Virus record (IMG/VR): IMGVR_UViG_3300028874_000370
Coordinates: 1 to 64,000 of that record
Length of the DNA: 64,000 nt
Reading direction: 5' to 3' (one strand)
Source of the DNA: a virus
This document shows positions 4,380 to 7,608 of the stretch, piece after piece. The notes below the pieces were generated by a model that saw only the letters and a program-made list of their open reading frames with translations, had not been told where the DNA came from and searched no databases. Made by a program: the position numbers and the translations under genes. Numbering within the stretch: position 1 is the stretch's first letter; every line of letters starts with the position of its first letter.

Positions 4380-4867
4380 TATTCTTTCCTATTTGAGTGG
4401 TGATAATCATAGCTTAAATGTCGGCCTAACACTTAAGAACCTATCGAGAGCTCTAAGAATATCACGAACTTTCGGCAAACGACAGGGATCATTCTACGTT
4501 TCCATCTTTACAAATGGAACACCGGGTCTCTCCGGCCTGAACTTCTATGAATATCAATGAGATGTTTCCAGTTTTATCCAACATACTGGTTTAATTTTCG
4601 GGCATTGGAGACCCTAGTTAGTTTTGCACAGTTCTTATCCGTGAACTACTAACAAAAATCGTCTGGTCATACTTCTCTAAACCGATGTTCTTTAATTATT
4701 AATTTGTACTAATGCAACTGGAGTAATAGTCCCGTCATCATTTGTCCAAGTTGATTGGATGATGTCATAAGATCCAAACGGCAAACCATCATCTGATTCG
4801 ACTAATAAATCCATTTCGGGATTTAGCAATTGCAATTTTAAAATTGATTGAGCAACAGTAAGTGGTT

Positions 4868-5140
4868 TCATGCTACAAGTGGTCCATCTTCAGGTGATTG
4901 TTCTGGGGTGTCTACAACAGGAACTACATCAACAGGATATTTTTCTGGGTGATGAAACGAATCCGCCAATAGATCAACACGCTTTTTCATTTCGATTGAA
5001 ATTTCAGTAGTGTGTTCAAGTAAAGATTTAAAAACAATCCAACTTGATAATTCTGAAGCAGCAAGAATAACACTTTCATTTTTCGTCTTAATGCCATGAC
5101 GACACAGATCCAACAACGAATTAGTTGAGATTAAAGACAT
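4868..5140 (-). CDS. hypothetical protein
   Basis: 90 aa, TAAGGT SD; first gene downstream of the ncRNA block. Confidence 0.6.
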   Translation of the reverse strand: MSLISTNSLLDLCRHGIKTKNESVILAASELSSWIVFKSLLEHTTEISIEMKKRVDLLADSFHHPEKYPVDVVPVVDTPEQSPEDGPLVA

Positions 5141-5164
5141 GTTTACCTTATTATTTTTATGCTG

Positions 5165-5226
5165 AAATCGGACGGCGGATAAGAATCACGCTGCTCTGTG
5201 ATTGTTATGGAACGCCTCTTCCGAAT
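5165..5226 (-). ncRNA. putative structured RNA element 4 (interrupted hairpin)
   Basis: UCGGA/UCCGA, GGCG/CGCC and AAUCAC/GUGAUU nested helices. Confidence 0.4.
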
Positions 5227-5230
5227 TATT

Positions 5231-5446
5231 GAAAATACATTTTGCTGAGAACTGCTAATCTGTATAATATTCCAACACCCATGCATAGGCAAAAAGGAAC
5301 AGAATCCAAATTATAACCCGATCTTACTGGTTCGGATAACTTACCACGCACACCCGGCACGTTGACTAGACTAATGCGGTGTACAACTTCATGGCATCAC
5401 TTAATCAGTCGAAATTAAGCAATTGTTCTCAGCAAAATATATTCTC
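5231..5446 (-). ncRNA. putative structured ncRNA 3 (about 216 nt)
   Basis: terminal stem 5231-5252/5425-5446 (22 bp, 2 G.U); internal helices AUUGCUUAAUU/GAUUAAGUGAU, GUACACC/GGUGUGC, AUCCGA/UCGGGU, UCUGU/ACAGA; no ORF of 60 aa or more. Confidence 0.7.
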
Positions 5447-5456
5447 TTGCTTTGAT

Positions 5457-5723
5457 ATAAAAAATATTTTGTTGGAAGCCTGATGTAACTTTCGTCTTGA
5501 CTAGTGGTAGTGCACTGCACTAGACGTCTTGAAAATTGCATTGATATTCTCTTCGGTATATCAATCTACCGTACAACTAGCGCACCGGCTTTGCCGCACT
5601 GCCCGTCCATGACAAATAGAGGAACAGTACTTAGACGCCACTCTCAGTGGAGGCGTGTTCGCTGATCATCGTGAAATAGCTGTCCACTACTACCAAATTG
5701 GCTCCCAACAAAATATTTTCTAT
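5457..5723 (-). ncRNA. putative structured ncRNA 2 (about 267 nt)
   Basis: terminal stem 5457-5480/5700-5723 (24 bp, 2 G.U); internal helices GGUAGU/ACUACC, GGACAG/CUGUUC, ACGCC/GGCGU, AUUGAUAU/AUAUCAAU. Confidence 0.7.
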
Positions 5724-5724
5724 T

Positions 5725-6252
5725 TAGAAATCATTGTGTTAGACCTTCATGTCCCGAGCATGAAGGCCACTACGTCTATTTTCGGGCTCTGGATCCCTAG
5801 ATCAATTATGGCATGATCGAAAATCCGGTGGCAAACCAGTTTATACTATCCACATATCTAGCCTTGATATGGGCTAATACAAAGCAAGCCGTAGACCTAT
5901 ATCTCGCTAGAAACTATAGGGTTCTTGCTAGGTGAATGCTGTACAAATCGGCGATTATCTCTCTCAAATTTTGTCTCTTGTCCTTATTGGACAGTTACTA
6001 TAGCTAGGTAAAGGGCATCATTTGGGTCATTCCCAGTGTGGTAGTTGAGGCGTGGCATCGATACATAATATACCGGAACGCCTCTATCATAAACTACGGA
6101 TATGATTAATCATTAGTTCACGCTGCATAATCCGATTCACGGATTGGCAGCAATGATTGATTATCACTCTCAATAGGACCTCGAAAGAATCCTACTCACT
6201 TCTTACTTCTTACTGTGTGTTGGCATTTAGTGATCCAACACAATGATTTCTA
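5725..6252 (-). ncRNA. putative large structured ncRNA 1 (about 528 nt)
   Basis: terminal stem 5725-5743/6234-6252 (19 bp, 1 G.U); many internal hairpins (GCUGC..AAUCCG/CGGAUU..GCAGC, GAGGCGU/ACGCCUC, UGUCC/GGACA, CCUAUA/UAUAGG, CCUUCAUG/CAUGAAGG). Confidence 0.75.
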
Positions 6253-6258
6253 TTTTGT

Positions 6259-6292
6259 TTTTAAAGAGCGTTGCTGTTTTGTGTTTCACAGC
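6259..6292 (-). promoter_or_regulatory. boxB-like hairpin plus boxA antitermination element
   Basis: GCUGU-gaaacacaaa-ACAGC followed by CGCTCTTTAAAA (boxA consensus (C/T)GCTCTTTAACA, 1 mismatch). Confidence 0.65.
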
Positions 6293-6302
6293 GTATGAGA
6301 TG

Positions 6303-6331
6303 ATTATACATAGGCCCTTTTTATTTGTACA
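6303..6331 (-). promoter_or_regulatory. sigma70-type / T4-early-like promoter for the ncRNA block
   Basis: TGTACA-17 nt-TATAAT; the same architecture recurs elsewhere in the window. Confidence 0.7.
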
Positions 6332-6339
6332 TAATTATT

Positions 6340-7608
6340 TTACATTCTCCAAACTTTAATTTTTGCTTCTTCGAATAGTGTTCTTTCCATCTTCCCTTTG
6401 ACATCTACGAAAGTTCCGTTGTTTTTTATTTTGGACAAGATTTGGTTCTCTCCAAGATTTAAAAGTTCACGGTGTGGAGTAGCAAGAACTACGATGTCAC
6501 ATTGTGGAATAGCTTCAAAGCTAACACCAGTCACTGCATAATTTTTAATTACATCGTGAACATCTGCAATCGGATCATGGATATAAAGTTTTTTGATTCC
6601 GGATCTGGCGAATTCGAGGACTAGATCTTCGACTTTAGAATTTCTCATGTCCTTACAATTTTCTTTGAATGTCAATCCAAGTATAGCAACAGTCAAGGTA
6701 TTTGGATCTTTATCCTTCAAGGCTTCACTTACTATAAATGATGCCATTCCATTATTTACCTGACGGGCATGTTTTAATAACTTGGCATCATACTTAACCG
6801 ACTCTGCCTTACTGATTAGATAGTATGGATCAACCCCAATACAATGGCCGCCAACTAAACCAGGACGATACCCAACAAAATTCCATTTCGACGAAGCAGC
6901 ATCTATCACTTCATTTGTGTCCAAACCGAGCTTATTAAATATCATAGAGAGTTCATTCATTAGCGCAATATTCACATCTCGTTGAATATTTTCTATAACC
7001 TTTGCAGCCTCCGCCACGCGTATGCTAGGAGCTTTATAAATTCCGGCTGTAATGATAGATTCATATAGGTGAGCCACGGCGTCTAGGGATGCCTGAGTGT
7101 CTCCTGCTACTATCTTTTTAATTTTAGTTACTGTTCTTTCTTTGTCGCCTGGATTGATTCGCTCTGGTGAATATCCAATATTAAAATCTTGAAGCCAAGT
7201 CATTCCAGAATGTTGTTCTAGAACAGGAACACAGATTTCTTCAGTGGCTCCTGGATACACGGTTGATTCATAGATCACAACTGATCCACGTTTCATGTGT
7301 TGTCCTACCAAAGCACTAGCGTCGATTAAACAAGTGAAATCTGGAACGTTGTGTTGATTGACCGGTGTTGGCATTGCTATGATAATGAAATCGGCTTCAT
7401 TGATCATAGCAATATCGGTGGTTGGAATAAAATAAGATGAGCTTAAAAAATCCTGAGAATCTAGTTCTCCATTAGGATCGATATGCTTTTTATATGACTC
7501 GATTTTTGACTCTGAAATATCATAGCCAATTGTTGTAAATTGTTTGCCAAATTCAATGGCGAGCGGAAGGCCTACATAGCCTAAACCGATGACTGCAATC
7601 TGTTTCAT
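6340..7608 (-). CDS. UDP-N-acetylhexosamine/nucleotide-sugar 6-dehydrogenase (WbpO/TviB/WecC family)
   Basis: GLGYVGLP Rossmann motif, YESTVYPG, SPERINPG, catalytic GGHCIGVDP, GLTFKENC. Confidence 0.9.
   Translation of the reverse strand: MKQIAVIGLGYVGLPLAIEFGKQFTTIGYDISESKIESYKKHIDPNGELDSQDFLSSSYFIPTTDIAMINEADFIIIAMPTPVNQHNVPDFTCLIDASALVGQHMKRGSVVIYESTVYPGATEEICVPVLEQHSGMTWLQDFNIGYSPERINPGDKERTVTKIKKIVAGDTQASLDAVAHLYESIITAGIYKAPSIRVAEAAKVIENIQRDVNIALMNELSMIFNKLGLDTNEVIDAASSKWNFVGYRPGLVGGHCIGVDPYYLISKAESVKYDAKLLKHARQVNNGMASFIVSEALKDKDPNTLTVAILGLTFKENCKDMRNSKVEDLVLEFARSGIKKLYIHDPIADVHDVIKNYAVTGVSFEAIPQCDIVVLATPHRELLNLGENQILSKIKNNGTFVDVKGKMERTLFEEAKIKVWRM

Follow-up and report, generated by a model that had tools for sequence, protein, structure and literature searches.

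Bacterial rRNA operons and the intervening sequences of 23S rRNA carry long flanking stems that are cut by RNase III. In phage T4, the stable RNAs C and D (species 1 and 2) belong to a tRNA gene cluster and arise from a polycistronic precursor, and to our knowledge their function is still unknown. Circular forms of archaeal pre-rRNA and of archaeal tRNA introns are made by the splicing endonuclease together with RtcB. We know of no protein-only route to a covalently circular ncRNA described in bacteria, and of no established substrate for phage RNA ligase 2 in the cell. Our literature search found no relevant work on large-phage RNAs that are circular or closed by a stem.

Many gene-free stretches of large phages are unexplained, and the one described here is a case in which RNA-level selection can be demonstrated from sequence alone. 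It lies in the window, by which we mean the whole 64,000-nt stretch that was analysed, part of a 102-kb IMG/VR record; the source is an uncultured phage from peat soil. The best reading of the locus is that its three units are released as stable RNAs, possibly circularised, which are co-transcribed with a small acidic protein, and we assign a probability of about 60 % to the whole chain of steps up to released RNAs that act in trans.

The gene-free block and its three stem-closed units

No ORF of at least 60 aa was found between positions 5141 and 6339 of the window, the longest in any frame being 53 aa, which bears out the 1.2-kb ORF-free block described in an earlier, sequence-only reading. 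The block is bounded by the gene of a UDP-sugar dehydrogenase (UGDH; 6340-7608, minus strand, assigned by Pfam), which lies outside the RNA unit and serves as its upstream synteny anchor, and downstream by the gene of a 90-aa protein (4868-5140, minus strand). Three minus-strand units tile the interval. Unit A (5725-6252, 528 nt) has a closing stem of 19-21 bp, formed by the inverted repeat 5725-5743/6234-6252 (19 nt, 95 %), while unit B (5457-5723, 267 nt) is closed by a 24-bp stem from 5457-5480/5700-5723 (24 nt, 92 %) and unit C (5231-5446, 216 nt) by a 22-bp stem from 5231-5252/5425-5446 (22 nt, 91 %). Neighbouring units are 1 and 10 nt apart; both these gaps and the three closing repeats were found exactly where that reading had placed them, and the observation of a block tiled by stem-closed units is thereby confirmed. 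The three repeats are the longest and cleanest long-range inverted repeats of the whole 102-kb record, the remaining pairs measuring 17-19 nt with two mismatches each. All six stem arms of the window follow one common consensus in alternating orientation (repeat families D1 and I4), and their sequence varies from unit to unit with complementarity kept inside each unit. Compared with shuffled sequences, the whole units gave fold z-scores of -4.3 (A), -5.9 (B) and -6.2 (C). These low values are mostly owing to the closing stems, since the interiors alone reached only -0.3 to -1.8 and were non-significant on either strand.

The units match no described RNA class. At gathering thresholds, Rfam 15, with models that include tRNA, tmRNA, RNase P, 6S, Y RNA, GOLLD, ROOL, self-cleaving ribozymes and group I and II introns, gave no match in the 64-kb window; at E <= 10, positions 5000-6500 gave just three junk matches (E 4.7-6.6), and nothing usable was obtained for the corresponding block or the extra unit of the related phage described below, in agreement with the earlier view that the units stand outside the known classes. 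ARAGORN detected no tRNA in the units or the block, nor anywhere in the 102-kb record, and a tRNA-like cargo was dropped from consideration. Coding by small ORFs was also dropped: a conserved ORF is absent, and strains differ in unit C by indels of 1, 3 and 4 nt, all of them within predicted loops or adjacent to one; two of the three are not multiples of 3 nt, which argues against a coding constraint.

Conservation in a related phage and selection on the minus strand

One related phage record, G003, carries a block at the corresponding position that is built alike, and the two blocks have hardly any sequence in common. Its TerL scores 72 % to that of the window phage, and both flanking proteins are orthologous, with 56 % identity for UGDH (L025:2791-4062) and 44 % for the 90-aa protein (L025:4981-5271). 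The unit sizes are not conserved, at 528/267/216 nt in the window versus 302/228/223 nt in G003. The closing stems of the G003 units g1 and g2 are 95-96 % paired despite a sequence unrelated to that of the window's stems, and that of g3 is less clean, with 17 Watson-Crick pairs, 3 G.U and 1 U.U. A fourth, single unit of the same style (g4) stands elsewhere in G003, before an unrelated gene and among unrelated neighbours, and tRNA arrays are found 3-5 kb downstream of both G003 unit loci. Closing stems measure 19-26 bp in all seven units, in a cross-phage comparison of two loci.

Beyond G003, few traces of the locus were found. Distant-mode blastn of the block and tblastn of the 90-aa protein family, which has 13 members, gave no match among 50,697 GenBank phages, and when the block was compared with four related IMG/VR records by blastn, only a shared ribosome-binding-site region came up. 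The window UGDH as lone query led to three distant loci, none with a gene-free block, and the 90-aa protein as lone query to no locus. A two-sequence profile of the latter found only G003 among viral contigs and its parent contig among metagenome contigs, and a 13-sequence profile gave no match in 185,579 species genomes. Three small related contigs contained no stem-closed units.

Little is shared by the unit interiors. Common 8-10-mers of the two phages' units were at chance level only, and pairwise local alignment of the interiors was significant only for the G003 paralogs g2 and g3, in which 15 pairs are preserved although both partners have changed. A covariance model built from these two matched only itself in 262 kb of related DNA and none of the window's units. 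Whole units aligned poorly in MAFFT, and only one hairpin was aligned in register.

This hairpin is part of a core common to unit B, g2 and g3. A regular-expression comparison of the units located the motif GGCAAAGCCGG (5585-5595, minus strand), and GGCAA-N(1-9)-GCCGG was present in unit B, g2 and g3 only. The hairpin itself (5542-5563, minus strand) has a 6-bp stem and the 10-nt loop ACCGAAGAGA, with the family consensus RCCGAWGARA. In its alignment (A7), 6/6 pairs have changed on both sides and 100 % of the cells are paired, compared with 7-50 % in slid controls, and 0/500 shuffles were as good. The three units thus display, in order, the closing stem, CAAU, GGCAA-N-GCCGG and the hairpin with the RCCGAWGARA loop, a set absent from units A, C and g1; g4 is without GGCAA..GCCGG and CAAU, and its loop-like GCCGAUGA is located outside any hairpin loop. 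In IMG/VR, the tight core motif had 62 matches with the stem present only in the two of G003, flanking pairing was seen in 0 of about 60 chance matches to the linear loop motif, and no hairpin occurred among the matches listed for the loose motif (80 loci). Judged by these sequence features, unit B, g2 and g3 qualify as a new family, which we call the unit B type.

The closing stems carry a strand signature. The stem arms of the window contain five mismatches, all of which were confirmed on recount to be A.C on the plus strand, and therefore G.U pairs on the minus strand. On the sense strand, the seven closing stems of the two phages together comprise 145 Watson-Crick pairs, 12 G.U, 2 A.C (both in G003) and 2 other, and a binomial test for at least 12/14 gave a probability of about 0.007. 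The folding energy of the whole block is -357.3 kcal/mol on the minus versus -319.4 kcal/mol on the plus strand. The excess of G.U over A.C in the stems and the covariation of the internal hairpin between the phages uphold the earlier proposal of selection on minus-strand RNA.

These data also bear on a reading at the DNA level, in which the block would consist of shufflon-like invertible segments or stacked miniature transposable elements, the arms being the site of one recombinase or transposase. The common consensus of all six window arms in alternating orientation, segments of 200-500 bp, which is a typical inverton size, and interiors that are completely different between the two phages would suit such elements. 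DNA recognition does not, however, predict the strand-specific 12 G.U versus 2 A.C, arms that differ between units yet remain complementary within each, or an internal hairpin that covaries. Furthermore, no additional copies were seen elsewhere in the genome, no serine or tyrosine recombinase gene (PF00239, PF00589) was found in either partial record, and the DNA contigs, which may hide rare variants, are colinear (run X5 over 5318-6040) without any strand-changing joint. Such elements are a very improbable explanation.

Signals around the units were compared between the two phages as well. A promoter-like TGTACA-17-TATAAT (6303-6331, minus strand; 10/12 matches in a consensus scan) points into the block. 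TATAAT-N9-CGCTG is common to both phages, so that the -10 element and its 9-nt distance to a leader hairpin are kept in G003, and the -35 hexamer is not conserved. The promoter put forward earlier is consequently present with its TATAAT retained, whereas promoter-like sites in the region are no more frequent than in shuffles (7 versus 6.9), and we treat it as putative. The leader hairpin GCUGU/ACAGC (6273-6292, minus strand), recognised from sequence and fold, contains ACACAAAAC, which falls within the loop plus one base of the 3' arm, the first; its G003 counterpart (L025:4127-4171) has the same CGCUG(W)GA..CACAAAAC motif, and among 35 matches to the leader motif in IMG/VR the only true counterpart was that of G003. 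The accompanying proposal of an antitermination leader did not hold. Its boxA-like GCTCTTTAA (6261-6269, minus strand) occurs once in the window, where chance alone predicts about 0.77 occurrences, and is missing from the orthologous G003 leader, where only the hairpin is conserved; the leader is therefore without comparative support as an antitermination signal, and the boxA-like site is probably fortuitous. A fourth hairpin had also been described, and the fold does place a trailing hairpin at ~5168-5224 (minus strand), after unit C and before the next gene; it lacks a U-tract and has no counterpart at the same place in G003. A terminator scan found none at this hairpin and, in both phages, none on the way from the last unit to the downstream gene, and the 90-aa gene is probably co-transcribed with the units. 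The shared layout, -10 element and leader hairpin support the block as a conserved unit, in line with the earlier reading.

Unit RNAs in environmental libraries

Two separate studies supplied the RNA contigs, each of which stays within one unit, whereas DNA contigs run across unit borders. The contig from RNA run X23 (164-165 nt, depth 8.8) covers the interior of unit C at 5255-5419, with the minus strand assigned indirectly, as RNA contigs carry no strand information, and on either side it stops 2-5 nt short of the inner edge of the unit C stem (5252 and 5425). The contig from RNA run X24 (174 nt, depth 3.3) reads 5594->5474 and then 5709->5657, and thus represents a 236-nt form of unit B (5474-5709, minus strand) in which 5474 is joined to 5709. 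This same-strand joint goes back 236 positions, has no shared letters and is placed inside the unit B stem. It is either a circle or an end-to-end join that marks the mature ends, and it was observed in one contig of one run, where end-to-end jumping by reverse transcriptase or ligation in the tube could give such a joint. A true circle is possible though doubtful; in a circular fold of the 236-nt form, a 7-bp stub of the stem is kept and capped by GUU. A retron was considered as a source of the joint and dropped, the joint being same-strand rather than a branch and reverse transcriptase (PF00078) not being found in either record. Unit A is without an RNA contig, and the flanking genes are also without cover in X23 and X24; both runs were picked with this very stretch and are represented by contigs, so the missing cover of unit A and the flanks is not evidence of absence.

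The sequence-only reading had the precursor cut into separate RNAs of about 528, 267 and 216 nt. Units as separate contigs agree with this, and the sizes do not, at 236 nt for unit B and about 165 nt for unit C instead of 267 and 216 nt. When the joint is combined with the pairing register, it implies for unit B a 3-nt 5' overhang and not the 2-nt 3' overhang of RNase III, in a single contig for which later trimming is possible. A simple RNase III cut does not account for the observed unit ends; it takes further trimming or a different nuclease to explain them. Taken together, the G.U bias, the shared covarying core, the ends of the unit C contig and the unit B joint point to RNA of the gene-sense (minus) strand, and it is very probable that the block is a minus-strand RNA transcription unit.

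A transcription unit of this kind could also act in cis. The units would then amount to an unusually large folded 5' leader, or to a processing region between cistrons like those cut by RNase III among the phage T7 early genes, controlling how stable the mRNA of the 90-aa gene is or how well it is translated, and the unit RNAs would be by-products. The syntenic order of promoter, units and downstream gene, the lack of a terminator between units and gene in both phages, and interiors that are poorly conserved and not unusually stable are what such a region would be expected to have. However, the RNase III sites between the early genes of phage T7 are single hairpins of about 60 nt, compared with three domains of 200-500 nt here; a covarying internal hairpin with an invariant loop is needless for a cut site; the RNA libraries contain unit interiors and not the mRNA; and the further G003 unit precedes an unrelated gene. 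We therefore consider a purely cis role unlikely and favour the release of the units as stable RNAs.

A possible release route and comparison with known systems

The favoured route would begin with a minus-strand transcript containing, after the promoter, a short leader hairpin, the three independently folding units and the acidic-protein gene with no intervening terminator. A clamp of 19-24 bp formed by the two ends of each unit would let it fold on its own, and a host RNase specific for double strands could cut this perfect duplex of two turns and free the units from the precursor. Once trimmed, the freed RNAs would build up as separate, stable molecules. In the case of unit B this may be the 236-nt species, with its 5' end G5709 joined to its 3' end C5474, for which a covalent circle is the simplest reading. 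Both phages encode an Rnl2-type RNA ligase, and this enzyme, for which a phage gene lies at L064:1168-2268, could seal unit B, since its substrates are 5'-phosphate and 3'-OH ends, the kind produced by RNase III. RNase III and RtcB (PF01139) were not found in either phage record, these being partial. The interiors would represent fast-evolving 'cargo', except in one unit type, where GGCAA..GCCGG and the RCCGAWGARA hairpin make up a small recognition core, a putative contact surface for a protein or RNA partner. The extended proposal, in which phage circular ncRNAs arise by a protein-only route through cutting of both stem strands and Rnl2-type sealing and bind a host or phage factor by the conserved loop, is tentative and on balance unlikely.

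A partner protein is central to a further possibility, modelled on Ro60 and its Y RNAs, in which the stem serves a protein as its handle and encloses a variable cargo or tether, and the partner is the downstream small protein or one encoded elsewhere. The layout of handle and variable cargo, a stem consensus common within a phage and a small protein gene conserved beside the units in both phages would accord with it. On the other side, the downstream protein is acidic and modelled as a plain three-helix bundle with an acidic tail (pLDDT 75) and no fold match, the stem sequences differ between the phages, the extra G003 unit has unrelated neighbours, there is no Rfam Y-RNA match, and TROVE/Ro60 (PF05731) was found in neither partial record (estimated completeness 30 % for the window phage and 53 % for G003). 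Such an RNP is improbable, and released RNAs remain the preferred reading.

The block keeps its layout in two phages and can be seen in RNA from the environment. Should the units prove to be released stable RNAs, they would constitute a new family among the few phage ncRNAs of such size and offer a simple model in which a long terminal stem packages exchangeable RNA 'cargo'. Should the head-to-tail form be a genuine circle, it would count as a rare circular RNA of a bacterial system made without introns or ribozymes, would give phage RNA ligase 2 a natural role and would provide a substrate for the T4-type enzyme. The conserved ten-base loop is a concrete handle for pull-down.

Among known systems, GOLLD and ROOL are likewise large phage ncRNAs of unknown function, often near tRNA genes. 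They differ in having large conserved folds, whereas neither size nor interior is conserved here and no match was obtained at E <= 10. With interiors neither conserved overall nor unusually stable, and with sizes that change between the phages (528/267/216 versus 302/228/223 nt), a large ribozyme-like class comparable to ROOL or GOLLD, as initially suggested, is not indicated. The Y RNAs of Ro60 (Rsr), YrlA/YrlB (RF02553), are also found in phages and have ends that pair into a long stem around a variable module; unlike them, the present units are several in tandem, match no Rfam family, are accompanied by no TROVE gene and vary in stem sequence between phages. The T4 RNAs C and D resemble the proposed unit RNAs as small stable phage ncRNAs that come from a polycistronic precursor and are encoded near tRNA clusters, given the position of the G003 loci upstream of tRNA arrays, and they differ from the window block, which is not located by tRNAs and has larger units (216-528 nt) with long stems. 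With the archaeal circles the proposed route has in common a flank-formed stem, staggered cuts in its two strands that leave 5' protrusions, and an RNA joined head to tail. In contrast to them, the unit B stem is fully paired at 5471-5474/5706-5709 with no bulge-helix-bulge, no RtcB was detected, the ligase is ATP-dependent and of the Rnl2 type, and the host of the window phage is bacterial, judged by phage gene content. In rRNA operons, as proposed for this block, several stable RNAs are carried by one transcript, each within a flank-formed duplex of at least about 20 bp that marks its release; the block departs from them in that its cargo is not rRNA, the ends 5709/5474 are without a 2-nt 3' overhang, and the boxA is not conserved.

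A gene-free block with three stem-closed units

The 64 kb of the window form the start of a 102-kb virus record from peat (IMG/VR). The window's genes, nearly all on the minus strand, are those of a large T4-like tailed phage and include terminase, ribonucleotide reductase, helicases, ligase and tail fibre. The block of 1,199 bases is flanked by two minus-strand genes, one for a UDP-sugar dehydrogenase (6340-7608) and the other for a 90-aa protein (4868-5140). Its longest open frame has 53 codons, which bears out the ORF-free block described in the sequence-only reading. The G+C content is 40-43% in the block vs 31-38% in nearby DNA, and no tRNA was found in the 102-kb record. The dehydrogenase gene is a full TviB/UDP-sugar dehydrogenase-type gene with three Pfam domains and may have a role in surface-sugar or DNA-sugar metabolism.

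Three stem-closed units were confirmed in this block, with all three inverted repeats exactly where they had been claimed: 5725-5743/6234-6252 closing unit A, 5457-5480/5700-5723 closing unit B and 5231-5252/5425-5446 closing unit C. Arm lengths are 19-24 nt with 91-95% complementarity, and neighbouring units lie 1 and 10 nt apart. In a record-wide scan for long-range inverted repeats these three ranked best, all others being 17-19 nt with two mismatches. One gap-free consensus is common to all six arms (repeat families D1 and I4), so alternative pairings enclosing two units are possible. Each unit's 3′ arm is also complementary to the next unit's 5′ arm (5724-5743 with 5700-5723), and A's 5′ arm can pair with B's 3′ arm (I4: 20 nt, 80%). 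The trailing hairpin is present as well (57 nt, 5168-5224), but it is not conserved.

The counterpart in a related phage

Searches of Rfam, GenBank phages and related IMG/VR records found no sequence homologs of the block, and relatives were therefore sought via the neighbouring genes. One IMG/VR record, G003 (185 kb, from a 349-kb contig), was obtained, sharing with the window 72% protein identity in TerL, 62% in a DUF932 protein, 56% in the dehydrogenase and 44% in the small downstream protein. Its layout is the same, immediately downstream of its dehydrogenase gene and on the gene-sense strand: TATAAT, nine bases, a hairpin with the motif CGCUG(W)GA..CACAAAAC, then three tandem units (g1, g2 and g3) of 302, 228 and 223 nt with gaps of 1 and 17 nt, and the ortholog of the 90-aa gene 44 nt beyond the third unit. 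The stems of g1 and g2 are 25 and 20 nt long and 95-96% complementary, while that of g3 is less clean (about 21 pairs: 17 Watson-Crick, three G.U and one U.U). Stem sequences differ between the two phages with pairing still kept, and unit sizes also differ.

A solitary fourth stem-closed unit, g4 (312 nt, 25-nt arms), lies at G003:132510-132821 (L071:4510-4821) with unrelated genes on both sides and no match in Rfam. On its upstream side is a TATAAT-containing hairpin, and immediately downstream comes the ribosome-binding site of an unrelated 94-aa gene. Arrays of at least 10 and at least 11 tRNA genes (L025:10329-12001 and L071:8078-10694, both stretches of G003) were observed 5.4 kb and 3.3 kb downstream of the two stem-closed RNA loci of this phage.

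Selection on the minus-strand RNA

Across the closing stems of all seven units, the gene-sense strand carries 145 Watson-Crick pairs, 12 G.U, two A.C and two other mismatches. A stem selected as DNA only would show G.T and A.C equally often, and at least 12 G.U of 14 would then be expected with a probability of about 0.007 (one-sided binomial, our own arithmetic). The strand argument made earlier thus survives, although its form that all mismatches favour the minus strand is weakened by the two A.C in G003. That the units are invertible or mobile segments acting at the DNA level is very improbable. Serine or tyrosine recombinase, reverse transcriptase, RNase III, RtcB and Ro60/TROVE were all absent from the G003 record and from the window's own (estimated 53% and 30% complete, respectively). 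The block folds better as the minus strand (-357.3 vs -319.4 kcal/mol for the plus strand). Local alignment identifies g2 and g3 as paralogs (z = 11.5). Aligned with each other, they retain 15 predicted pairs, three from the closing stem, in which both partners have changed.

By eye and regular expression, a core was found in unit B, g2 and g3, comprising CAAU directly after the stem, GGCAA-N(1-9)-GCCGG and a hairpin with a 10-nt loop (ACCGAAGAGA, ACCGAAGAAA or GCCGAUGAGA). Aligned in register, 6/6 hairpin pairs are changed on both sides with every cell paired; 0/500 shuffles were as good, and sliding the partner by 1-3 columns reduced pairing to 7-50%. The alignment was chosen by hand, hence IMG/VR was scanned for the linear motif, giving about 60 chance matches with at most two flanking pairs each, and the stem only in the two G003 units. 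This core is the sole interior homology between the two phages: no other unit pair rises above chance, and the window units are missed by a model derived from g2 and g3. The interiors are not more stable than shuffled sequence (z -0.3 to -1.8), the strong whole-unit z-scores being due mainly to the closing stems. The picture is one of clamps enclosing rapidly changing contents, in which a single unit type carries one small conserved motif. An 11-nt GGAACGCCTCT (RNA: AGAGGCGUUCC) occurs in the trailing hairpin (5209-5219) and unit A (6075-6085), and a related CACGCCUC(C/A)ACU in units A and B (repeat D9); either shared contact sites or coincidence could account for these.

Taken together, the G.U bias, the better minus-strand fold, the G003 layout and the covarying hairpin give good support to a minus-strand multi-RNA transcription unit, to which we assign a probability of roughly 85%. 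As for its putative promoter, the TATAAT and its spacing, together with the leader hairpin, are conserved between the window and G003, but the -35 hexamer is not, and shuffled sequence is just as rich in promoter-like sites. The proposed rRNA-like antitermination leader was not accepted, since the boxA-like GCTCTTTAA (6261-6269) is found once, against a chance expectation of 0.77 per window, and is missing from the G003 leader. In neither phage does a terminator separate the last unit from the 90-aa gene, so this gene is probably co-transcribed with the units. That the units are a cis-acting leader for it is unlikely. The 90-aa family has 13 members, from metagenomes only; the protein model is a three-helix bundle plus a disordered acidic tail and gave no fold match. 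Family search, model and fold comparison revealed no RNA-binding features. It has an invariant N-terminal motif, TNSLLDLCRxGI..KNE, and its tail ends in GPxVA.

Probably released RNAs and known systems

The stretch is present in many peat DNA runs and partly in two metatranscriptome runs from different studies, whose contigs were compared over 4600-7000; the RNA contigs carry no strand information, and the runs were picked by match to this stretch, so that empty flanks have no meaning. One run (X23) gave one 164-nt contig (depth 8.8) covering 5255-5419, the interior of unit C; each end of the contig falls 2-5 nt short of the inner edge of that unit's stem. The other (X24) gave one 174-nt contig (depth 3.3) running, in minus-strand sense, 5594 to 5474 and then 5709 to 5657, a joint that goes back 236 without shared letters, whereas DNA contigs are colinear over unit borders (5318-6040 and 5340-5525). 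Among environmental runs, unit C differs by a 1-nt deletion, +CAAC, A>C and +CCC (5282, 5341, 5374 and 5391), in or beside predicted loops; the lengths of 2/3 indels are not divisible by three, which fits non-coding RNA.

The head-to-tail form is genuinely present in the data, in one contig of one run, and under either origin marks the ends G5709 and C5474, within the closing stem of unit B at 14 and 17 pairs from its base. It would fit a 236-nt circle and equally a reverse transcriptase jump between two molecules, off the 5′ end of the first and onto the 3′ end of the second; true circles in the cell are doubtful. In the pairing register of unit B, these ends leave a 7-bp stub with a 3-nt 5′ overhang (GUU), which in a circle would fold into a hairpin with a GUU loop. 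These ends differ from the 2-nt 3′ overhang that RNase III leaves; a central cut by this enzyme, with the 3′ end then trimmed to the terminal CC, is a possible route. Both records encode a T4 Rnl2-type RNA ligase (PF09414; phrog_548 full length, E = 3.5e-68), of 366 aa at L064:1168-2268 (minus strand, about 98.7-99.8 kb of the window's record, outside the window), with a shorter relative of 231 aa at L063:1360-2055 in G003. Rnl2 joins a 5′-phosphate to a 3′-OH, fitting RNase III-made ends, and the ligase is compatible with circularisation but proves nothing. Release of the units as separate stable RNAs is likely, while the exact product sizes first proposed find no support in the observed ends (5709/5474, 236 nt, and 5255-5419).

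We favour trans-acting stable RNAs, in which the clamp would be a processing and stability element and the conserved loop a binding surface. A protein-handle particle on the Y-RNA plan is quite unlikely, with the Ro60/TROVE gene sought and found in neither incomplete record. Our literature search found no published description of comparable stem-closed or circular RNAs in large phages. The suggested new large ncRNA classes of ROOL/GOLLD size are not indicated, since the interiors are at shuffle-level stability and not conserved overall: GOLLD and ROOL have large conserved folds, whereas the stem-closed units here do not.
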